DNA of 63,349 bases, filler included, from Anaerolineae bacterium (lineage in GTDB: Bacteria > Chloroflexota > Anaerolineae > Epilineales > Epilineaceae), in assembly GCA_029262755.1 (NCBI GenBank). It is 7 parts of 7 records of this genome, joined end to end, with 100 filler letters (N's around TTAATTAATTAA, not from the genome) between each part and the next. Parts side by side here need not be neighbours in the genome. Positions count along the whole stretch, not along the records: positions 29,783 to 41,111 come from JAJCYU010000265.1; 6 more parts are not named here. One strand, 5' to 3'. Positions 9,393 to 43,642 of this stretch are shown in pieces; the first letter of the stretch is position 1; every line of letters starts with the position of its first letter. Below the pieces are notes generated by a model. That model was not told the origin of the DNA and did not search any database. It saw only the letters and a list, made by a program, of their open reading frames with translations. The position numbers and the translations under genes are program-made.

Positions 9393-11567
9393 GTGATTGC
9401 TCCGAATCGTGCAGCGACCGTGCGTAGTGCAGCCAAACAGCGTGTCCACCGTTTCGGACGCGGCTTGGGCATTGCTCTGGCGATCGCCCTCGCGACCGCA
9501 GCCGCAACCGCCACCGTCCATGCGCAGTCGGAACCGACCGTCGACGCGCTGCTCGGCCCACCGATCGCCAGCGACCTCGCAGCCATCCGCGCCCGCAGTC
9601 CGGAGATCGTGTCATACACGGGCGGACGTGTGATGGCGCTGGCCGCGGAGCGAACGCGTCCGATCGCTTGGGTGGTCCAGGGCTCGCGCGTTGTCGCCTT
9701 CGACGTATCCGGCTACGAGCCGCGCGAACGGGGGCGCACGCCGGTGCTGCCGGATCCGCTCCTCGGGCTCGCCGCAGACGCCGGCCTCGTCCTGGCGTGG
9801 TCGAAGGGCTTCGCGCCCGGCGATGCGTGGCTAATCGACGGGCGTGATCCTAGTTGGCCGCGCGACGTGCGGCCCCTTACGCTGGGCGGGCCGGTGCGCG
9901 CGGCGGTCATGGACGGGCGGACGGCCGTGCTCGTGGTGGGGGACGAGGTGGTCGTGCTCGATGCGGGCGATATGCGGCGGCCTACGATCGTTGCGCGCGC
10001 CCCGTTGCCCGAGGGCGTTCGGGACGAAGGTACACCTCTCGTCGCCTCGCAGGATGGATGGATTGCCGTCGCCGCCGGCGATCGCGCATACGTCGGGCGG
10101 ATCGCGGACGAGGGAGCGATCCGGTGGGCGGCCTACCATCAACGTGGGCGAATCGACCAGATAGAGGTCGCTGGAGATCGCCTCTTCATCCTGGTGGAGC
10201 AACTGCGAATTCAGATCGTAGACTTGAAAGCCGGGGGCTATAGGTTAGAACAGTCCGTCGTCTTCACCCAAGGCGACCACATCATCCTTCGCCTCACGTC
10301 CTTCGTTGCGAGCGAAAGGCAGCTTGTGGTTCGCGAAGCCGGAGTGATTCGGGTGATGGATCGAGTCGGCGGGCCGGATCCCTGGGTCGAGCGCGCCATT
10401 CCACACCTTCGAACAGACGTGAACTGGCTTCAGCGGACCGCAGAGGCTGCCGACGAATTGCGGCTCATTGGGTTGGGGGATGGCCTGGAACTCTTCCGGG
10501 TGCCGGTCTCTCCGATTGGCGCTTTGCGTGCCGTCCTGCGCAGGACGGGCAGCCGCCGGCCCGCGCACGGCCCCCAGTACGCCACGGCGCCGCGCGACGA
10601 CGTGCTGATCACATCGGGTGATCACGAGCTGCGCGTGCTCGACGTCTCGCGTGCGGCGTCGCCCCGGCTTCGCGCTACGGTGGAGACCGACGTTGTGGGC
10701 GCGATTTCGTGGGATATCGTGGGCCGGATCGACTGGATCGGGGACCGTGTTTGGCTTCATGACCGTGACGAGAAGGTGGTCTTTGACGTCGCCGAGTTAG
10801 ACCAACCGCGGCGCCTGGGTAGCGTACCGCACTATCTGCGTGCACCTCCGAACAGCCCGGGCGGCCTCGTGGCCGCGTTGGGGCCGTTTGCCGTGGTGGT
10901 CGATCGTCGCGAAATGGTCGTGCTGGATCAATCCAGTGTCACGGTGCTGCACTCCGAGGTATCGCGCACGGAGTTGCCCGGCTACTCGCTCCGCCTTGCA
11001 GGTGTCTCAGGCGACACGGTGTGGTTCGTCGGGAGCGCACAGTCACGCCTGACTGGCCTGATCGTCGCGGTTGATGCCGGCCGGCCGGAGCAACCGCGGG
11101 TGCTATCAACGACACCGATCGCGCCGCTGGCGAGCGCTGCCACGCTCGTCGCCGATCGCTGGCTCGCGATGATCAGCGTGCCTGTCCCTACCTCCGCTGT
11201 ACTGACGATCATCGACACGAGAGCGGAAGGCGGGCCGCGCGCCGTCGGGCAATTGGAATTCGAGAGCGCCGTGGACGCACGGGCCAGCCTGCGCGCGATG
11301 CCGCATGCCTACGGAAGCGACGTGCTCCTGACGCTGGACGATCGTCGTGTCGTCCACGTCGATCTGAGCGTGCCGGCGTTCCCGGATGAAGAACGCACGT
11401 ATTGGTTGCCCGAGCCGGGTCAATGGCCGTCGCGAGTTGGCGATACGATGTGGTTTGCCGGCAAATTCGGCGGTTTGATGGGCATCCAGCTTGACGGGGC
11501 TCTCTTCGAGCCAGCGACGTGGTTGTCGCTGCCGTTTCTTTCGCGGGCGACGCTTGGGGCGCCGTAG
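9393..11567 (+). CDS. Exported beta-propeller protein (divergent LVIVD-like repeats)
   Basis: Signal segment LGIALAIALATAAATATVHA; repeated 'VLDVSxxxxPR' units; ends WLSLPFLSRATLGAP. GTG 9393 chosen for upstream GAGG; ORF is open from 9303. Confidence 0.75.
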   Translation: MIAPNRAATVRSAAKQRVHRFGRGLGIALAIALATAAATATVHAQSEPTVDALLGPPIASDLAAIRARSPEIVSYTGGRVMALAAERTRPIAWVVQGSRVVAFDVSGYEPRERGRTPVLPDPLLGLAADAGLVLAWSKGFAPGDAWLIDGRDPSWPRDVRPLTLGGPVRAAVMDGRTAVLVVGDEVVVLDAGDMRRPTIVARAPLPEGVRDEGTPLVASQDGWIAVAAGDRAYVGRIADEGAIRWAAYHQRGRIDQIEVAGDRLFILVEQLRIQIVDLKAGGYRLEQSVVFTQGDHIILRLTSFVASERQLVVREAGVIRVMDRVGGPDPWVERAIPHLRTDVNWLQRTAEAADELRLIGLGDGLELFRVPVSPIGALRAVLRRTGSRRPAHGPQYATAPRDDVLITSGDHELRVLDVSRAASPRLRATVETDVVGAISWDIVGRIDWIGDRVWLHDRDEKVVFDVAELDQPRRLGSVPHYLRAPPNSPGGLVAALGPFAVVVDRREMVVLDQSSVTVLHSEVSRTELPGYSLRLAGVSGDTVWFVGSAQSRLTGLIVAVDAGRPEQPRVLSTTPIAPLASAATLVADRWLAMISVPVPTSAVLTIIDTRAEGGPRAVGQLEFESAVDARASLRAMPHAYGSDVLLTLDDRRVVHVDLSVPAFPDEERTYWLPEPGQWPSRVGDTMWFAGKFGGLMGIQLDGALFEPATWLSLPFLSRATLGAP

Positions 11568-11818
11568 TCACACGGATCGCGGGCGACGAACCCGAGCTAA
11601 AGCAAATCGCCGCGCTGGCTCTTGCGTGGCCACGCCCGAAACGCGCATGCCTTTGCGCTCCCACCGCAGCCTCCCCCAATGCCGCACAAGAAATAATCCC
11701 CCTGTACTTGGCCATATCAGAGTAATTTCAGAGTTCGGGAAGGGCCGTCCATCACACTCGGCTCCGTTGAGCCTTGGCGTGGTGAATTGCCGCGCATCAC
11801 ATTGATGGATGGTGGATC

Positions 11819-14800
11819 ATGTCTGCAGTTGCCCCTTTGTCCCGGCGCCCGCGTGTTGCGCGGCGCCTCCTGTTGTGCCTCATTGGAATGCTGTATGTCC
11901 TTGGAGTGATTGGCCTTTTGGAGACCACTTCGTCGGCGCACGGCGTCGACCCCTCGTCCGATGCGATCACCATCGCAGAGGACTTGAATGCGCGTGACCG
12001 GGACCGCAAGGGTCCCACCGTCACGCCGACGAAAGAACCGACGCCGACTCCGTATACGGGCCCGTCGCCCACACCGACGCCCACCGTGTACCCCTTGGGG
12101 CCGCTGGCGCACGTGTTTGGGCTGCGCGCCGAGGACCGCATCGGCTGTAGGAACCGCGGCTTGTACTACACCGACGACGATTTGAGCGAATGCCTTGAGG
12201 AATACGGGCTCAACCAGATGGCAGAGACGCTGCCCGCCACGGGCTGGGTGTCCATCCCGCGCACGAGCACGAAGTTCGTGGTGCCGGACCTGCCGGCCGA
12301 CCCCAACGAGGACGGCACGGTCGACGTGGCCATCACGTTCTCGGCGTTGATTCTCACCGAGTTGCAGGTGGTCGACGCGCCCGTGTACGTGCGTGCGCTG
12401 ATCGACGGCCAGCCGGCCGATCCGGGCAATATCGTTATCTCCGATGGTGAGACGCTGCAGCAGTATCACGTACGCAGCTTCACCTTTAGCGACAAGGCGA
12501 CGCCCGGCATCCACATTGTGGAGATGCAGTGGCTATCGCCCGAGACGAGCGTGCATGTACGGGATGCGTCCGTCGAGGTGATCATCGATCATCCGGAAGG
12601 GAACCTGCACGATCTGGCCGTGCGCAGCTCCAATGGCACGGATCTAGTGCAGATGAACCAGGCCGTTTGGACGGACGTGCCCGACACGCTGCAGGTCTTC
12701 GAGATGCCGGAGAACGGCGAGGTGGCATTTACGTTCGCGGCCAGCTTCAAGATGACGCAGGGTGACTTCTTCATGGTGCGGCCCGTTATCGACGGCGTCG
12801 CGAATGCCGAGCCGCCCTCCATCGAGCTCGGCGGTCGGGTCTTCCACCGCGAAGCGCGTTCGGCCACGTTCACCGTGGATGGGCTCGCACCAGGTTGGCA
12901 CCAGGTGAAGTACCAGTGGCGCGGCAGCCTCACCGACGAGATCGCGATGGCCGAGGTCCGCGGCTACACGTCGCGCGTGCTGGCGGGCCCGAAGCAGACC
13001 GACTCGACGAGCTTCGATGTTTCCGTGCAGCCGGGCCAGGACATGGCGCTGAAGGGGCAAGGATACGTGCCTCTCACGGGCCTGACGGAAGAGATCGAGC
13101 TGCCGGGTAACTCAGAACTCTCTCTTACCTTCAGCGGCGCGGTGACCGGTTGGCAGCCGGTGTTTGTGGCGCCCATGTTGGACGGCGAGGTGCAGTCCGA
13201 CCTCGAGGTCATGGTGCACTACCCGGCCAACTACTGTGACGGCGTGCTGTGCGGCGATGACAACATCACCGATGCCGGCGCCCGCAGCTACACGTTTTCG
13301 TTCAAGAACATGTCGCCGGGTGTCGATCCGCTCGAAATCGGAATGGCTATGCGCGCTTCGGAGAGCGAGAGTGCGTGGGGTATCGTGTGGAACGCGACGA
13401 TGACGGTGCTGCGCCAACCCTATGTCGGCCCGGACCTGGCCGTCGGGGCCAACATGGGCGGCGGATCGAAGAAGAAGCAGGCCATTATCGAGCCGATGCG
13501 CGGTTCGCGTCCGACACTTGCCATCGTCATCGATCCGCAGCGCGAAGATCAGCCCGAGGCGGACGCAGACTATATGAACGGCATCGAGGAACTCGTCTTC
13601 GGGGCCAGCCCGTCGGCCAAGAAGTTCTATGCCGCCAACTCCGGCGGCCGCTTGGACATCGTCAAGGCGGGCCCCGGGGTACTGGGGCCTTACGAGACGC
13701 AGGAGAGCGCGGACCACTACTGGACTCCGCATAGCTGCGTCGGCGACGCGGACGAGGCGCCGGGCGACGAGCAGCACGGCGTGCGCAGCGGCTTCGGCGA
13801 GTTGGTGGCCGAGGCGCTGGCCGCCGCGGACGACGACTTCGACTTCTCAGCCTACGACAACAATCGGGACGGCGTGATCAACTCGGACGAGCTCGCCGTG
13901 ATCGTAGTCACGCCGCAGGAAAGCGCAGGCGGTAGCAGCGCGGTGAGCAACTTCAAGATCAACTGCGAAAGCCCCACCGGCTTCTACAGCGAGGACGGCC
14001 CCGACGGCACGCGCATCCGCCAGTTGCTGCACTGGTACACACCGGGCGTTGGCGATGACCTCGCGACCGCGGTCGCGTCGGCCAACGTGCTCAATCACGA
14101 GTTGGGCCACCTTATTCCGTGGTTGGACGACGCCTACGGTGTCGTACCGGTCTTCAGGCAGGGTCCCAACATAGGCCAGGTCTGCGACATCGACGGCGTG
14201 GACGCCGGCGATCCGGACTGCCAGAAGCGCGTGGTGCCAACCGCGCCGGACATGATCTCGTTGATGTCGCGTTCCGGGTCCAACCTGCCGCACGTGGACG
14301 GCTTCCACAAGGTACAGATGGGCTGGGTGACGCCGGAGTCGGTGATTGCCTCGGGCACCTACACGCTCTCCGACGTCAAGACCGATGGACGGGTGATGAT
14401 CCTACCCCGCCTCAACGCGCCGCACCTCGAGTACTTCTTGCTCGAGACGCGCATCGAGGACAACAACCTGGCCACGGACCGCTACGACTACGGCATCAAC
14501 GACGACGGCTTGGCCATCTATCACGTGATCGAGCCCACCGCGGCCTGCCCGGGCGACCCGGAAGGTTGTGCAACGGCCATGGCGCCGATGTGTGTGCCAC
14601 AGGGCGTGTGGGACAATCACTTCGCGAACTTCGTCCGCACGGGCCTGCGCCTGATCCAGCCCGACGGTGGTCACCGTCTCATCTGCGACCCCGACGGTGT
14701 GTCCAACTGCTACACGGAGACATGGCAGACGTTGTGGGGCGGCGTGGGGCAGTCGATCTGGCAGGACGGTCCGATCTCGTGTCCGCCGGTGATCGGCGAA

Positions 14801-35952: not shown

Positions 35953-37602
35953 GTGGGGGACGATCACGTCGATCCAACCGTGATGCGATCCGCAGAGGAT
36001 CCGCAGGCGTACGCGTCACTGCCCGATCCTTGGGGTCTGGCATACACCATGGGCTGCGCCCTCGTCCTCCTGTTGGCTTTCATGACCGTCATGGTCCTCA
36101 CCGGCTGCGCCGGCCCGACGCCCACGCCGCCCCCCGCGCCCACGTCGCCGCCGCCCGTCGTCCGCGACGCCGGCGCGAGCGCGCCCCCCGCGCCCACCGT
36201 CCGGCCGACACCGCGCCCGCTCCGCGTCACGACCGCGCCGCTCTCCGACGACGCCCCGACGCGCCCCGGCGAGCCGGATTGGCGCGGCGCCGACGTGCTC
36301 GCCGGCCCCTGGTCGCCCGACGGAAGCGTGCTCATCGCGTACCGCATCGTGCGCCAGGACCCGCTGCACGGGCCCATCGGCCGCGTCGCGGTCGTCGATA
36401 CGCGGCGCGCTCTCGAAACGGACGGAGCAGAGTCCGGCGTCGGATCCGACGCCAACGACGCGAGTCCCGCGGATGACCTCGTCGCGCCCTCCCCGCGCTG
36501 GGAGACCGGCGACGTGCAAGGCGTGATCGGCCGCGAATCGCCGGCCGACTGGCGCGCGGACGGCACGCTCATCTTGGCCCGTGCCGACCGCCCGTTCGTG
36601 GACGCGGACGGCGCCGTGGTGGCCGAGGTGGCCGGCGGCTTCGGGGTCCAGGTGCGGCAGGTCGATGTGGCGCCCAACGGCCGTAGCGCCCTGATCGCCG
36701 CACGGGATCGGGCGTGGATTCTGGATCCGGACGGCCTCCTGCGCCCCGTGTCCGGCCTCGGCGCCGGCGAGCTCGGCGGCTGGGACTGGCGCTTCGACGG
36801 CGGCGCGCTCGCGTTGAGCGTGGCAGGCGACGGCGTGTACGTCATCGACGCCGCGACCGGGCAGGCCCGCCCGCGCATCGCCGCCGCGCCGGACCCGGAG
36901 GACGCGCCCCCCGGCCCGCCGCCCGCGCCGCGCTGGCTGGCCGATGGCCGTCTGCTGCTCCCGGTGCCGATCGGCTCCCCCGGCGCAGGCGGTCTGGCCC
37001 TCGGCATCGCGGATCCCGCACCCGACGGCACGGGCGGCGGCGCGCTGCACACCTTGCTCGGCCTGCCGCCCAACCCCGAGATGCCGCTCGACGCCTCCGG
37101 ATGGGTGTCGCCGGACGGCCGCTACATCGTGTACCCGCAGGTGGATCGCGGCCGCAACGGCGCAGAAATCGTGGCCCAATGGCTCTGGGACGTCTCCGCC
37201 GGCGCTTCGGCGGGTCTGGCGCCTTTCGGGGAACCGAATTGGGGGCCGGATGGTCGCCGCTTCGCGCTGATCGAGGACGGCGGCCTCCGGGTCGTCGACG
37301 CGGCCGAGGCCATGGCGACGACAAGCGACGCGTCGTATACGCCGCGCGAGATTCTCCCCGCCGGCAGCGGCGTCTCGCGGATCAACTGGTCGCGCGACGG
37401 TGCATGGATCGTATACGCCGGATCCGATGGCGCTGCGTGGCTCGTCGCGTCGGACGGCGGCGCGGGACCCGCGCGCATCGGCGAAGGCACCTGGGACGGC
37501 GACGCGACGTGGTCGCCCGGCGGCGATCGCTTCGCGCTGGCGCTGCGCGCCCCCGAAGGCCCGGCCCGGCTCACGATCGCCCGTTTCGAGATCGGCCGAT
37601 GA
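35953..37602 (+). CDS. Putative lipoprotein with a TolB/PD40-like beta-propeller
   Basis: Lipobox-like VLTGC, Pro/Thr linker, repeated WSPDG/WSRDG motifs; start uncertain. Confidence 0.75.
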   Translation: MGDDHVDPTVMRSAEDPQAYASLPDPWGLAYTMGCALVLLLAFMTVMVLTGCAGPTPTPPPAPTSPPPVVRDAGASAPPAPTVRPTPRPLRVTTAPLSDDAPTRPGEPDWRGADVLAGPWSPDGSVLIAYRIVRQDPLHGPIGRVAVVDTRRALETDGAESGVGSDANDASPADDLVAPSPRWETGDVQGVIGRESPADWRADGTLILARADRPFVDADGAVVAEVAGGFGVQVRQVDVAPNGRSALIAARDRAWILDPDGLLRPVSGLGAGELGGWDWRFDGGALALSVAGDGVYVIDAATGQARPRIAAAPDPEDAPPGPPPAPRWLADGRLLLPVPIGSPGAGGLALGIADPAPDGTGGGALHTLLGLPPNPEMPLDASGWVSPDGRYIVYPQVDRGRNGAEIVAQWLWDVSAGASAGLAPFGEPNWGPDGRRFALIEDGGLRVVDAAEAMATTSDASYTPREILPAGSGVSRINWSRDGAWIVYAGSDGAAWLVASDGGAGPARIGEGTWDGDATWSPGGDRFALALRAPEGPARLTIARFEIGR

Positions 37603-39263
37603 CGCGGCGGCGTACCCTAGTCGCGCCGCCTCGCCGCGCCGCCGCCAGGTTCGCGGATAGCCCCTTGGATCGCCCGCCGACCGCAACTCTTCCGACGGCC
37701 CATGCACGCTCCCTTTCCCAACGCCGCCCATCGTTCACGCCTCCGCAATCAAGCTCCTCCCGTATCCGCCACGCGCCCTTGCCTCTGCGCTCGCTCGGGC
37801 CCCTCCTACTCCCCCTGCTCGTCCTCGCCATCGGCGCGTGCTCCGGCGCGACGCCGACGCCCGAGGTCGATCCGGAAGGACCGCTGCAGCTCTCGCTTGA
37901 GGTGTCGCCCGTCGATGGCGACGCGCCGCACGAGGTGCGCGCGCGCGCCGAGCTCAGCGGGGAGCTCGGGCCGGGCGACGCCGTGCGCTTCCGCTGCGCG
38001 ACGGCCGCGTTCATCATGGGCAACGACACCGTGCAGCACGTACCGCCCGAGCAGCCCTGCGACGATGAGGTCCAGCGTGCGTACGAGACCACCTACACCT
38101 ACGAGGCGGCCGGCACCTATCCCATCTCCGTGCGCCTGATCGCCCGTCCGGTGCGGCCCAGCCGCTCCATCCAGGTCTTCGTACGCGGTGCGACGCCGAC
38201 ACCGGTGTCGGCCGGCGCAGCGTCCGGTCCGAACATCGTGATCGCGACGCCGGTCACCCGCACCGCCGAGCCGCCCACGCAGGCCGCCACCGAGGCCTCC
38301 GCGCCGGCGGCAACGGCGACCCGCATGCACTCCGCCACGCCGGAGCCGGTGGGCCCCGCCACCCGCGTCGCGGTCGATGCGACGCCGGCGATCGGGGTGT
38401 CCGTGCTGCCGGCCGACCTGTACTTCCTGTCCGGCGAGCCCGCTCGCATCGCGCGCCTGCCGGCCTCCGGCGACCCGCCCGAGGCCGTCGGTCCGCCGGA
38501 CGAGCGCTCGGTGTCCGACTACGCGGTGTCCTCGCTCGGCCTCGTGGCGGTCCTGGCTGAAGGCGAGCTGGCCGTGCTGTCGCCGCTGGGCGAGGCGCGG
38601 ATCGTTGCCGCGGACGGCGCGAGCCACCCGACGTGGTCGCGCGACGGCCGCGCCCTGGCCTATGCGCGCAACGGCGTCTTGCACCATTTCGATGTCGTGA
38701 CCTTCAAGGAGCGGTCGCTGGCTACACGTGGCGAGCCCGTCGCGTACTCTCACGACGGCGCTTGGCTCCTTGCACGGGATCCGGAAGGCGCGCCGCTCTT
38801 GCTCCAGCCGGATTCGTCGCCCATCGGGCGCCAACCGCTCCCGCTAGACGGTGCGGCCTACGCCGGGTGGCTACCGGGCCGCAACGTCCTGTGGCTCTCG
38901 GGCCCGGGCCTGCGCTTCGTCTCTGTCGAGGACGCGATCACGGTCGCGCCCGTGCTGGACACGGACGTAGCCACCTCCCCGCTCTTCGTCCGGCCCGACG
39001 AACGCGCTCTCTTGCTGGCCGAGCGCAACGGCTCCTCGACGCTCCATCTGGTCGACCTCACCGCCCCCATGCTCGAGGCGGAGGTCGTCGGCGTACCGCT
39101 CGTGCTGCCGGTCGACGCCGACTTCGCCTGGTCACCCGACGGCCGCTGGCTCGCGGTTGCCGGGCCGTCACGCCTCATCCAATTCAATCCCGTAACCGGT
39201 TTGTCATCCACCCTCGTGGAAGGCCCCGTTCGCCGTCCGAGCTGGGTGCTCAGCGGACGCTAG
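37599..39263 (+). CDS. Putative lipoprotein: PKD-like domain + TolB/PD40-like propeller
   Basis: ATGA overlap; lipobox-like AIGAC; 'YTYEAAGTYPISV'; WSRDG/YSHDG/WSPDG. Confidence 0.75.
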   Translation: MTRRRTLVAPPRRAAARFADSPLDRPPTATLPTAHARSLSQRRPSFTPPQSSSSRIRHAPLPLRSLGPLLLPLLVLAIGACSGATPTPEVDPEGPLQLSLEVSPVDGDAPHEVRARAELSGELGPGDAVRFRCATAAFIMGNDTVQHVPPEQPCDDEVQRAYETTYTYEAAGTYPISVRLIARPVRPSRSIQVFVRGATPTPVSAGAASGPNIVIATPVTRTAEPPTQAATEASAPAATATRMHSATPEPVGPATRVAVDATPAIGVSVLPADLYFLSGEPARIARLPASGDPPEAVGPPDERSVSDYAVSSLGLVAVLAEGELAVLSPLGEARIVAADGASHPTWSRDGRALAYARNGVLHHFDVVTFKERSLATRGEPVAYSHDGAWLLARDPEGAPLLLQPDSSPIGRQPLPLDGAAYAGWLPGRNVLWLSGPGLRFVSVEDAITVAPVLDTDVATSPLFVRPDERALLLAERNGSSTLHLVDLTAPMLEAEVVGVPLVLPVDADFAWSPDGRWLAVAGPSRLIQFNPVTGLSSTLVEGPVRRPSWVLSGR

Positions 39264-39424: not shown

Positions 39425-40543
39425 ATGACCCAGCCGACCCGCATCGCGATCAACGGCTTTGGGCGCATTGGGCGCCAACTCGTCAAGGCCATTCACGAGC
39501 GCTACTGGGATGCGCTCGACGTCAAGGCGATCGGTATCACCGATCCGTTCATCACCGAAACCCGCGCGCTCCTGCTGGAGCGCGATTCCGTGTACGGCAC
39601 CTTCGACGCCAAGGTCGAAGCTGTCGTGGAAGGGCGTACTAACGCCATCGTCGTCGACGGCCGCAAGATGGACATCGTCGGACGCAATCCCTATGGCCCC
39701 GTGCCGGAGTGGAAGCGTTGGGACGTCGATCTCGTCGTCGAGGCAACCGGCTATTTCCGCACCCGTGAAAACGCGAGCAAGCACCTGGTCATGGGCGCGA
39801 AGCGCGTGCTGATCACGGCGCCGGGCAAGGATTCCGATGTCACGATCGTGCGCGGCGTGAACGAGATCGACTTCGATCCCGAAGCCCACGTGATCGTCTC
39901 CAACGCCAGCTGCAGCACGAACGCGCTGGCGCCCGCGGCGAAGGTCATCCAAGACACCTACGGCATCCGCCAGGGCCTGCTGACCACGATCCACGCCTAT
40001 ACCTCCAGCCAGGTGTTGCTGGACCACGGCGGCAAGGATCCGCGTCGCTCCCGCGCCGCGGCGCTCAACATCGTGCCCACGACAACGGGCGCGGCAAAGG
40101 CCGTCGGCGAGGTGATCCCCGAACTAAAGGGCCGCTTCCACGGCTCGGCCCTGCGCGTCCCGACGCCCACCGTTTCGCTGGCCGATTTCACGGCCCTCGT
40201 CGAGCGCCCGCCGGCTTCGGCCGATGCGGTCAACGCGGTCCTACGCGCCGCAACCGCCGACACGATGCGCGACGTGCTCGGCGTGATGGACGTGCCGTTG
40301 GTAAGCATCGACTTCACCGGCGATCCGCATTCTTCCGTCGTCGACGCCGGCGCAACGATGGTGCAGGGCGAGCTGGTCAAGACGGCACTTTGGTACGACA
40401 ACGAGTGGGGCTACGCCTGCCGCGTGGCCGACATGGCCTTCTACATGTCCGAACGCGTCAAGGGCCGTTCCCACGCCGACGTGAAGGCCGACATGCATGA
40501 GCGCGCACCCCAAACGCGTGCGCTCCGGGAGGTGGTGGCATGA
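39425..40543 (+). CDS. gap: Type I glyceraldehyde-3-phosphate dehydrogenase
   Basis: INGFGRIGR, NASCSTNALAP (Cys163), TTIHAYT (His190), NIVPTTTGAAKA, WYDNEWGY; GGAGGTG SD. Confidence 0.93.
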   Translation: MTQPTRIAINGFGRIGRQLVKAIHERYWDALDVKAIGITDPFITETRALLLERDSVYGTFDAKVEAVVEGRTNAIVVDGRKMDIVGRNPYGPVPEWKRWDVDLVVEATGYFRTRENASKHLVMGAKRVLITAPGKDSDVTIVRGVNEIDFDPEAHVIVSNASCSTNALAPAAKVIQDTYGIRQGLLTTIHAYTSSQVLLDHGGKDPRRSRAAALNIVPTTTGAAKAVGEVIPELKGRFHGSALRVPTPTVSLADFTALVERPPASADAVNAVLRAATADTMRDVLGVMDVPLVSIDFTGDPHSSVVDAGATMVQGELVKTALWYDNEWGYACRVADMAFYMSERVKGRSHADVKADMHERAPQTRALREVVA

Positions 40544-41111
40544 GCACGCGCGTCGCGATCCACGGTTTCGGCCGCACGGGCCGCCAGGCCTTCAAGGCGA
40601 TCTGGAAGCACTACCGCGACCGTTTGGAAGTCGCCGCGATCGGCATCGAGAATCTGGCCGACGCCCACGCCGCCGCCCACTTGTTGCAATACGATTCGAA
40701 CTACGGCCGCTTCGGCTCCGAGGTCAGCGTGCTCGACCACGAGCTCCGTGTGGACGGCGTCGCGATCCCGCTCGTCGCCGCCGACTCGCTGGCCGAGCTG
40801 CCCTGGAGCCGCTTGGGCGTCGATATCGTCATCGAGGCCACCGGCGTCTACGCCGGCGGCGGTCGCGCGGCGGGCCACCTGGAAGCCGGCGCGAACAAGG
40901 TCATCATCACCGCCCCGAGCGACGACGCCGACTTCACGCTCATCTGCGGCGTGAACGACGCCGACTACGACCCCACCGCGCACCACGTGGTCTCGACCGG
41001 CTCCGACACGACCAACGCGCTCGCTCCGGTCCTGAGCGCGCTGCTCGGTGAGTTCGAGATCAAGAACGCCTTGCTGACGGCGGTGCGCGCCTATACCAAC
41101 GCGCAGAAGCT
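40540..41111 (+). CDS. GAPDH-family paralogue lacking the catalytic Cys/His (3' truncated by linker)
   Basis: IHGFGRTGR, LLQYDSNYG, VIEATG, KVIITAP; active-site segments read STGSDTTNALAP and TAVRAYT. Confidence 0.88.
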
Positions 41112-41211
41112 NNNNNNNNNNNNNNNNNNNNNNNNNNNNNNNNNNNNNNNNNNNNTTAATTAATTAANNNNNNNNNNNNNNNNNNNNNNNNNNNNNNNNN
41201 NNNNNNNNNNN
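41112..41211. other. Artificial linker
   Basis: N/TTAATTAATTAA/N. Confidence 0.98.
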
Positions 41212-43642
41212 GATCGTCCCCGGGCGTCGGCGTCGGCAGGTTCAGACCGGGCGTTGCTGGAACGTCGCGTTGTGCCCACGGCAGGAACACGGTTTGTCCC
41301 ACCGGCGTGCTCGTGGGGCTGGGCGACGGTGTCGCGGTAGGCGTGATGGTACGGGTCGGCGTGGGGCTCGGTGTCGGCGGCGCCTCCAGCACGCATGCCG
41401 ATGCGTCCGGGGTTGCACCGGACGGTGCGCCTTCCGGACCCAACGCGAAGGCCAAGACCCCCAGATGCGCGTCGCTCACGAAGACGCAGTCGCCGTGCGG
41501 GACCGGCCGACCGGCGTCGGCGCGCCACGTAACGCGCCCGACCTCGTCCGGCCGTTCGGGGGACGAGACGTCGATCAACGCGATTCCGCCTTCCCGGCCG
41601 TTCACGCCGAACTGCACCCATGCGCGGCGGTTCTCTCGCGCGATGGGTCCCGGATTCGCCAGATCGAGCTGGCCGATCATCGCCGGCGTCCCAAAGTCCC
41701 GGACGTCGAGTACGGAGAAGCCGAAGCCGAACGAGCTTAGCCACAGACGCTCGCCATCGGGCTCCACGTCGGCGATGACCCCGGCTCCGCTGGGCAACAC
41801 GAACTCGCCTGTTCGCGCCGGTCGTAGCGGATTCCTCACATCGACGCGCTCCACGGTGCCGCCGCTGCCCAAGTACACCGTGTCACCCACCAGGCGCCCA
41901 CTCCTCGGCCGTAGTCCCGGTAAGGGCGCAGAGAGCTTCATCGCTCCATCTTGCCACCACAACAGGTGGCTCCCGGTCGGCGCGACGGCCAGGACCCGAC
42001 CACGGTGGATATCCAGCTGCAGGATGTCCACGGGCGCCGCCTCCTCGCCTTCGCCGGTCGTTGGTTCCTGAGGCGGGGGAATACGCAAGTCACGACGTTG
42101 CACCTGGTTGCCGTATGACCAAGCAAGGTCCCATCCGTCCCCATCGATCTCGGCCCGCCGTGCGGGTCCGTTCGCCCGTTTCGCCAGCTCGATACGCGCC
42201 CCGATGCCATCGGCAGCCAGCGGATCGACGCTGCGCACGCCGTCCCACCAATCCACGGCCCATAGGCGCCCGCCGGCCAACGCGACGCTTTCCACCTGCA
42301 ACGACCCATCGCGCAGCATTCCCATCGCGGCAAGCGGAGACTCCGCTTCCACCGGGACGTCGATTCGCAGCACGCCTTGGTATGGGAGGTTGAATAGCAA
42401 TCCGCCATCGACGGACATGAGCCTGGGAATCACCCTCCCGGAGGGCCTTGGTCCAAACTCGACCGATCTGTCCGCGATCAACTCCCCTCCCGTCGCGCCG
42501 ACGATGCGAATCTCGGCGATCATGTCCTGGTTCGCCAACCAGATTCGATCGTCCGTCACGTGGACGGCGTCCAAGAGCCCATGCAAGCCGTTCGGCAGCG
42601 GCAGGTTGGAAACGGCAGCGAATGCATTCGCCGAATTCAAGTCGTACAGCGCGATCCGGGCTCCTTCCCGACGCACAAACCAGCGCTCGCTCACCGCGAA
42701 TAGATCACCCGACAAGGATCCACCGGATACGAGCGGTCGTTGCCGCGGCTGCAACGGCGCGCGGCCGTCGATGATCTCGAAGATCGGCGGCGGCGGGGTG
42801 GGTGCCGGGAGCCGGGTGATCTGCGGCGCAGGCGTAGGGGCGGGCGTGCCCGGGGTCGTCATCGTTCCGGTCGGTATCGGAGCAGGCGTCGGCCGAGTCT
42901 CGATCCGCAGCAGTTGAACGACGCCGCGTTGGGAAGCCGCGTCGACCTCCATGGCCAGAATGCGCCCGTTCGGGTCGTAGGGCCCCTGGGCCACTGGGGC
43001 TGCCGGTTGGGATACGTCGACGATCTCCAACGCGCTCTCGGTCCATACCCAGGCTGCACTGCCCACACGAAACACGCGGAGCGGGACATCCGGTAGCACG
43101 ACCTCGGCGACGAGGCGCGGGCGCTCCTCGGTGCTTGGATCGTAGACGCGCAGCACACCGCCGCTCGCCGTGGCACCGACCACATAGACGAGACCACGAT
43201 CCGTGTCGACCGCGAGATCCGCGATCGCCACCGTGTCCGGTCCCGTGCTCGACAACGGGGGAGCACCGATCGGTGCCGCGGCATCGAACACGAGCAACCG
43301 CGGCCCGACGGCCACCAGGATCCGATCGCCGAGCACCGCGGCCGCCGCCGCCGGCCCCCCGGTCTGCCCCACGAGCTCGAGGGGGCGCGGACCCTGCGGG
43401 GCCGCCTGTACGCGTCGCTCGCTCTCGCCGACAGACAGCGAGAAGGCCACGACCGCGAACAAGGCCGCGCCGATGAGGAAGGACGTGCGACCGGCAACGG
43501 GATCGACGTGAGCGGTAGGCCGCGTCGCTCGTTGCGTACGGAGGGCATTTCGGCGGAATCGACGTCGAGCGGAATACCGGGCATTGATTCCGACGCTCGT
43601 TCGGGCGCTTCGTCCGCCGTTATGTCCTTTGCGAATCCTCAT
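41212..43642 (-). CDS. Exported LVIVD-like beta-propeller protein (3' truncated)
   Basis: TM/signal segment FLIGAALFAVVAFSLS; 'LELVGQTGG', 'IVDVSQPAAP' repeats; PT linker then VFLPWAQR. Confidence 0.78.

Follow-up and report, generated by a model that had tools for sequence, protein, structure and literature searches.

Two overlapping genes for proteins of the glyceraldehyde-3-phosphate dehydrogenase (GAPDH) family were analysed in a 63,349-nt stretch of DNA, referred to here as the window, which stems from the draft genome of an Anaerolineae bacterium (GCA_029262755.1, G000; 428 contigs, 84% complete). The upstream gene, gap 'A' (39425..40543, plus strand), encodes an intact GAPDH of 372 aa, whose translation revealed the Pfam domains Gp_dh_N and Gp_dh_C and the active-site residues Cys163 in S-C-S-T-N and His190 in I-H-A-Y-T. 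The second gene, the GAPDH paralogue 'B', is present with its 5' part of 190 codons and 2 nt (40540..41111, plus strand), matched Gp_dh_N with an E-value of 4.3e-27, and shared 43% identity with A across 192 aligned columns. Its product starts with M-S-T-R-V-A-I-H-G-F-G-R-T-G, with GFGRTG as residues 9–14. Direct reading and alignment to A placed Asp156 (codon GAC, 41005..41007, plus strand; motif S-D-T-T-N) at the position of the catalytic Cys and Arg183 (codon CGC, 41086..41088, plus strand; motif V-R-A-Y-T) at that of the catalytic His. A GGAGG Shine-Dalgarno sequence for B (40528..40532, plus strand) lies inside the last codons of A, which encode its E-V-V-A end, 7 nt before the ATG, and the TGA stop of A (40541–40543) overlaps the ATG of B at 40540 in the form ATGA. 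The two substitutions and the junction had been described in an earlier sequence-only reading of the window, and its coordinates and residues proved correct throughout, as did the 27-residue spacing of Asp156 and Arg183, which equals that of Cys163 and His190 in A, the retention of GFGRTG, and the integrity of the available frame, which comprises 190 codons without stop or frameshift.

The open frame of B ends at 41111 and had rightly been regarded as incomplete, though the cause is the end of contig C265 of G000 and not the edge of the window. The positions 41112..41211 (no strand) represent a non-biological assembly spacer between contigs C265 and C266, in which N runs from 41112 onwards flank a TTAATTAATTAA linker at 41156–41167, and C266 begins at 41212. 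Altogether, six such linkers flanked by N were found in the window (9221, 15983, 29727, 41156, 55042, and 60514), so that it consists of seven contig pieces chained together, and genes on either side of a linker are not genomic neighbours. A Logan contig from the probable source run (depth of about 6) was identical to the window from 39425 to 41085, where it also stops; it spans the Asp codon of B, confirming GAC and not TGC at 41005, and ends before the Arg codon at the His site. Since this contig stops near the same place, the break in B reflects a low-coverage assembly gap, and B is cut by the contig end, not by damage. The C-terminal half of B was not found in the G000 assembly, and no match to PGK (phosphoglycerate kinase) was obtained in this 84%-complete assembly either. 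Among 5.8 billion database proteins, no longer protein identical to the fragment was found, the best one being 83% identical; the closest full-length protein, P0011 (343 aa), showed this identity over all 190 residues.

Both the variant and its tandem arrangement with an intact GAPDH turned out to recur when the residue signature and the synteny were searched for. Among 40 relatives, B orthologues were detected in 14 genomes of the family to which the window belongs, with 57–71% identity to the window fragment; in every case, an A orthologue lay some 1.1 kb away in the same orientation. The extracted orthologues were full length (338–349 aa, one of 303 aa) and free of internal stops. In a fifteenth relative (G009), a B of greater divergence was located between pgk and an A that is cut by the contig end. 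Counting G000, 16 of the 17 species genomes in the family thus possess the A-B pair; in the remaining one, G006 (65% complete), no GAPDH match was obtained at all. Outside the family, no B was detected in any of the 18 remaining genomes of the order; the closest-scoring non-family matches were second GAPDH copies of the family f4 (47–50% identity), all of which retain Cys149, His176, and Gly209. Here and below, sites are numbered by the Geobacillus stearothermophilus convention, and the equivalents are in part those that we take to correspond, with PDB titles backing only Cys149 and Asp32.

In a large protein database, the B clade comprised 65 clusters defined at 90% identity, followed by a sharp switch to canonical proteins: the next 55 listed matches all had the Cys, 54 of them with the residues Cys/His/Gly and one with Cys/Gln/Gly. 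The source names of the B-clade matches were 'Ardenticatenales bacterium' and 'Anaerolineae bacterium'. In a library at 50% identity, the clade was reduced to one representative (P0009), and the signature of Asp/Glu with Arg209 was absent from the other 146 best matches shorter than 520 aa. A related-locus scan of genome contigs with generic GAPDH motif patterns returned as its best 80 loci sequences with at most 50% identity to B, none with the Asp motif and 75 with the motif S-C-x-x-N, and is uninformative on the range of B elsewhere. As far as searched, the B clade is restricted to one family of the order whose public matches bear the name Ardenticatenales (Chloroflexota), and its taxonomic range is narrow. 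In a tree of 73 sequences, A and B were each monophyletic (SH-aLRT 100), B standing on a long stem.

The catalytic Cys149 was missing from every one of the 65 B-clade members, over which all of the following residues were counted. Asp occupied its site in 52 members, Glu in 10, Gly in 2, and Ser in 1. Position −2 carried Asp in all 10 Glu forms and Glu in the 3 Gly/Ser forms, and altogether a carboxylate was found at site 0 or −2 in 65/65. The Gly209 site was taken by Arg in 62 members, by Thr in 2, and by His in 1, and the Asn of the AALN motif was exchanged for Ser in all 65 (Ser202). The His176 site was divided between Arg (43) and His (22). On the clade tree, the His/Arg state changed about four times, with at least two changes forced by well-supported branches (summary range 2–4), the state of the Cys site three times, and that of site 209 twice. 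Raw counts, in which phylogeny is ignored, revealed an acidic residue five positions after site 176 in 17 of 22 His forms vs 5 of 43 Arg forms, and Glu, never Gln, at the canonical-Asp column in all 43 Arg176 forms. From the window copy, the changes of Cys to Asp and of His to Arg had been read as a pair of complementary charge that looks selected. Selection was borne out, but not the conserved pair, since His is kept in 22 of the 65 members and the site flips repeatedly between His and Arg. Judged from the aligned members, the fixed innovation of the clade is an acidic residue at 149 together with Arg209 and Ser202, the latter two in the part of B that is missing from the window, and the combination of Asp with Arg176 is a secondary, recurrent variant.

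Apart from these exchanges, much of the active site was retained. The GxGxxG motif was near-invariant, and Ser148 (Ser 55, Thr 10), Thr150, Thr151, and Asn152 were conserved. The substrate-phosphate site was kept with Thr179 (Thr 58, Ser 6), Arg195 (60), and Arg231 (56), of which only the equivalent of Thr179, Thr186 in the A-Y-T motif, falls inside the window fragment. Likewise, the nicotinamide-site residues Asn313 (64), Glu314 (61), and Tyr317 (60) were retained, and Arg194 and Arg197 were present in all 65 members. The S-loop was highly conserved within the clade, with Q191, L193, D195, R202, R205, A207, and S210–P213 being invariant.

B orthologues carry both domains, Gp_dh_N and Gp_dh_C. 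An AlphaFold2 model of the B protein P0003, based on a 65-row alignment, reached a mean pLDDT of 90.3, with only the S-loop (193–208) and the tail being uncertain, and its best structural matches in Foldseek were GAPDHs with TM-scores of 0.88–0.95. The best sequence match in the PDB was GapB of Bacillus subtilis (8wwz_A, E = 2e-91). Against the equivalog TIGR01534, P0003 and P0011 scored 335.9 and 345.9 bits, respectively, compared to a cut-off of 367.2; B stayed below every equivalog cut-off in NCBIfam, and the clade is without a curated family. Thus, B fails membership in type I GAPDH on Cys149, on Gly209, on the equivalog score, and, in the case of the window copy, on His176. Some B proteins are named 'type I glyceraldehyde-3-phosphate dehydrogenase' in public records; because the catalytic cysteine is missing, this name is very probably wrong.

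Selection on B was assessed by Nei-Gojobori (NG86) dN/dS in eight within-genus pairs (dS 0.12–0.44). In seven of them, B revealed values of 0.07–0.28, indicating purifying selection, and A values of 0.04–0.09; in the eighth pair (G011/G001), the ratio of B was 0.45 and that of A 0.30. Although clearly constrained, B evolves at two to three times the rate of A. The view that the gene is not decaying agrees with these values, with the full-length orthologues, and with the conservation of the clade, and an essential residue has been lost here (Cys in 65/65) from a gene kept under selection, as in pseudoenzymes; the conserved, remodelled pocket may nevertheless be active. The fixation of the same substitution in 65 clusters and 16 genomes is far beyond chance, and B is a conserved, selected, and uncharacterised GAPDH-like variant, not a broken copy. 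The one short copy (G014, contig C240; L014) has 303 aa and aligns to query residues 4–298 only, the copy of G008 from the same genus having 338 aa; close to its 3' end, the reading frame may be shifted or the assembly faulty.

The junction of the two genes was conserved as well. In all 15 junctions read, the stop of A and the start of B overlap as ATGA, GTGA, or TGATG after an embedded Shine-Dalgarno sequence GGAGG (GGGGG in L011 and L013), which bears out the overlap first noticed in the window. The placement of this Shine-Dalgarno sequence within the coding sequence of A accounts for the conserved E-V-V-A terminus of the A extension as a dual-coding constraint. Downstream of B, pgk was found in 14 of 14 loci and additionally in G009, i.e., in 15 relatives, wherever the flank was read. 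In the near-complete genome G013 (5 contigs, 97% complete), A (L034, 8990–10108), B (10105–11154), and pgk (11151–12431) follow each other with consecutive overlaps. Seven longer flanks revealed A-B-pgk as the conserved core, followed in genus g8 only by a gene similar to 3-hydroxyisobutyrate dehydrogenase. The gap between B and pgk varied from an overlap to about 500 nt, the A-B junction being far more rigid. Judging by these junctions, translation of B is coupled to that of A, and pgk follows B.

Gene A was conserved across the 15 loci. Its product scored 365.4 bits against TIGR01534, slightly below the cut-off, and displayed an insertion of 2 residues after strand 2, which is common to B, and another one of 4 residues. 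Its C-terminal extension of about 30 residues has the conserved core G-R-S-H-x-D-V-R-A-D and contains no Cys in the window copy. An AlphaFold2 model of A from 15 sequences (mean pLDDT 60.3) left the catalytic domain unresolved and was too poor for use; for the extension, this poor model suggests a short helix at 348–358. In the sister family f4, three loci (L038–L040; G025:C69, G019:C41, and G027:C191) carried an A-like second GAPDH, which shares the 2-residue insertion with A (here AAIGVTDPT) and displays the motif SSSSCTTT(S/C)LAP and a C-terminal extension unlike that of A, and within the 4–6 kb fetched around these genes no B-like or pgk match was found. The G000 assembly harboured only three GAPDH-like places, namely A, B, and a Cys-containing copy outside the window (C375:13186–14205, L002), which was 46% identical to A, formed a very long tree branch (1.36), and has an equivalent in most genomes of the family.

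In GAPDH, the Cys thiolate forms the hemithioacetal and the thioester of the reaction. Without this thiolate, neither intermediate can arise, and the canonical phosphorylating oxidation of glyceraldehyde-3-phosphate is impossible for B. We tentatively favour the explanation, to which we give slightly less than an even chance, that B serves GAPDH A, with which it is co-produced, as a partner subunit that binds ligands and lacks the thiol. In favour of this view are the rigid coupling of the two genes, their strict co-occurrence, and the numerous precedents of paralogue subunits that are catalytically dead. According to this proposal, A and B would be produced in a fixed ratio and assemble into mixed tetramers, in which B, itself non-catalytic, would bind a dinucleotide, a phosphorylated or anionic metabolite, or both in a remodelled, more cationic pocket. 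Through such mixed tetramers, B might tune the GAPDH/PGK step.

Several observations weigh against a partner subunit. The translational coupling that, together with co-occurrence, links A and B is also seen between consecutive enzymes of a pathway, and in G013 B overlaps pgk as well. A and B are not sister clades in the 73-sequence tree, so that B did not arise by a recent duplication of A, its presumed partner. The column aligned to Asp32, which contacts the adenosine ribose, is variable in the B clade (Asp 20, Asn 11, Glu 8, and Arg 8 of 65 members; the alignment of this column is uncertain, as it adjoins the 2-residue insertion common to B and A), and dinucleotide binding by B is therefore not assured. 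The retained substrate- and nicotinamide-site residues, together with the fixed acid at 149, Arg209, and Ser202, form the pattern of a working active site, which would be unexpected in a passive structural subunit and speaks for an enzyme. A complex prediction of B with the 33-residue C-terminal extension of A gave a score of 0.00 against a mark of 0.32, with controls not folded, and is no evidence either way.

The pattern of a working active site leads to the main rival explanation, possible but on balance unlikely, in which B is a neofunctionalised enzyme on the GAPDH fold, either a dehydrogenase that depends on NAD(P) or some other catalyst. The carboxylate at 149 would then act as general base, helped by His or Arg at 176, and Arg209 together with Thr179, Arg195, and Arg231 would hold a phosphorylated acid or sugar. 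Gfo/Idh/MocA oxidoreductases, which use Asp/His general-base chemistry, may offer an analogy. In accordance with such a role, Asp and Glu interchange at site 149, a compensating Glu appears at −2 whenever site 0 is Gly or Ser, and a carboxylate is never lost from the 65 members; moreover, Arg209 and Ser202 are fixed specifically in this clade, phosphate- and nicotinamide-site residues are retained, and B is under purifying selection. However, an essential acid/base residue would not usually flip repeatedly between His and Arg, as site 176 does, and no candidate reaction gained support. In a more specific form, B would be a working thiol-independent enzyme that uses Asp/Glu149, Arg209, and His/Arg176 and whose substrate at the GAPDH/PGK node would be a triose- or glycerate-phosphate, with B acting alone or in a complex with A; we consider this doubtful. 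If true, B would represent the first case of thiol-independent catalysis on this fold and, having no oxidisable active-site cysteine, would resist oxidants and electrophiles.

Two replacements of known enzymes by B were considered and rejected. Triose-phosphate isomerase (TIM) was detected in 14 of 17 genomes of the family, and the three without it are 65–84% complete. A substitution of SerA (3-phosphoglycerate dehydrogenase) was unsupported as well, with no evident pathway gap. The long type of SerA (TIGR01327) exceeded its cut-off in 2 of 17 genomes of the family vs 14 of the 18 genomes that the order has outside the family, and short SerA-like matches of 337–383 bits occurred in four genomes of the family, G000 included. 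Since SerC_1 was found in only 3 of the 17 genomes (above the cut-off in 2), no gap in the pathway is evident, and in genus g2 B coexists with SerA and SerC. Apart from that, the short SerA-like gene of G013 (C4:949716–950604) appears split, with an in-frame TAG, and is intact in G007, G015, and G016 of the same genus.

A third explanation, which appears improbable, regards B as a homotetramer of its own that binds or buffers a labile or regulatory metabolite, e.g., 1,3-bisphosphoglycerate or NAD(P)H, without enzymatic activity and possibly hands it over to PGK. The position of B between gap and pgk in all loci read would suit such a binder, and so would the highly conserved S-loop and a pocket with extra Arg residues and no reactive thiol. 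The idea is purely inferential, however; a carboxylate beside the acyl-phosphate site would repel the ligand, and the spacing between B and pgk varies, as opposed to the fixed A-B junction. Finally, an artefact or a decaying gene (sequencing error or pseudogene) might be suspected from the incomplete window copy in a low-coverage assembly, the missing 3' half and pgk in a genome that is 84% complete, and the apparently C-terminally truncated copy of G014, but is effectively refuted by the same residues in 65 clusters and 16 genomes, full-length orthologues without internal stops, dN/dS well under 1, and the Logan contig, which agrees at the Asp codon.

Few enzymes have been studied as well as GAPDH, whose Cys149-His176 dyad is regarded as universal. 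With the B clade, there is a natural, conserved group in which the thiol is exchanged for a carboxylate, the phosphate pocket is rebuilt, and the gene is coupled to a normal GAPDH. In full-text literature searches, whose coverage excludes most subscription journals, no report of a naturally occurring bacterial GAPDH paralogue without the Cys came up. As a regulatory partner, B would parallel, in bacteria, the regulated A2B2 enzyme of plants and, to judge from these searches, would be a GAPDH pseudoenzyme not described before; as an enzyme, it would stand for new chemistry on a textbook fold. As a consequence for annotation, public records probably misname B as GAPDH.

Further GAPDH-like genes and neighbours were observed along the way. 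Eight other, unrelated singleton representatives of the GAPDH family in the 50%-identity library lack the Cys and carry Gly, Ser, Pro, or Ala at its site (P0227, P0247, P0249, P0272, P0273, P0278, P0306, and P0321); as their signatures are unlike that of the B clade, the thiol has been lost in other lineages too. Two genomes of the family possess a second tandem pair of GAPDH-like genes (L036, G002:C33:9500–15500; L037, G004:C32:7000–13000). The first member of these pairs is canonical (SNASCTTNC, HAYT, TTTGAA, and WYDNE), and the second one is divergent and without WYDNE, displaying SNGSCTAHC in G002 and SNGSSTAHC, with Ser at the Cys site, in G004. The protein P0184 (2089 aa, low-GC source, hydrophobic N-terminus) comprises, within a single chain, a PGK-like stretch and four GAPDH-like modules with the Cys, and topped the clade-profile scores solely owing to its four modules. 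Upstream of A in the window, a long open reading frame (ORF; 36714–39263, plus strand) revealed only a weak match to PD40 (beta-propeller). In G013, an unannotated ORF of about 586 aa (L034, 7158–8918) is located upstream of A, with matches of 33–64% identity upstream of A in G015, G005, and G004.

In comparison with known systems, B resembles type I phosphorylating GAPDH (EC 1.2.1.12/13; TIGR01534; G. stearothermophilus 1GD1, B. subtilis GapB 8WWZ) in its two Pfam domains, an identity of 45–50%, and the fold, in the kept GxGxxG and equivalents of Ser148, Thr150, Thr179, Arg195, Arg231, and Asn313, and in the adjoining pgk, as in classical gap-pgk operons. In contrast to type I GAPDH, it carries Asp/Glu for Cys, Arg for Gly209, Ser in AALN, and often Arg at the His site, and forms a separate, long-stemmed clade below the TIGR01534 cut-off. 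Epd (erythrose-4-phosphate dehydrogenase) and the ArsJ-associated GAPDH are of the same family, and B scored 262–298 bits with them in NCBIfam, which is far under their cut-offs of 530–539 and 450 bits, respectively. Both of these enzymes keep the catalytic Cys, and no arsJ was found among the neighbours read in G013. The engineered variants Cys149Ala and Cys149Ser of the G. stearothermophilus enzyme (1NPT and 1NQ5) ranked first and seventh among the structural matches of the B model. Being 'complexed with NAD+' according to their PDB titles, they illustrate that fold and NAD binding survive the loss of the thiol; unlike B, they carry a laboratory Ala or Ser and no natural carboxylate, and lack the changes to Arg209 and Ser202.

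Precedents for pseudoenzymes are provided by the regulatory subunits of PPi-phosphofructokinase and ADP-glucose pyrophosphorylase. Like such dead paralogue subunits, B has lost a key catalytic residue, is conserved, and is co-encoded with an active paralogue; unlike them, it keeps the other ligand residues and fixes new ones, so that its pocket looks remodelled rather than degraded. Chloroplast GapA/GapB (A2B2), entries of which (7q54, 2pkq) were among the PDB sequence matches of B, likewise consists of two paralogous subunits of the GAPDH fold, one with a C-terminal extension, the regulatory mixed tetramer being only an idea in the case of A and B. Both plant subunits are catalytic with Cys149, which B does not possess. 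The C-terminal, CP12-like extension of plant GapB is redox-active via two cysteines. In A and B, the extension resides on the catalytic subunit A and is Cys-free in the window copy, whereas in plants it belongs to subunit B, and the last residues of the A extension are, unlike those of the plant one, constrained by the Shine-Dalgarno sequence of B. With these differences, the chloroplast GapA/GapB heterotetramer would be the nearest analogy for the mechanism proposed here.

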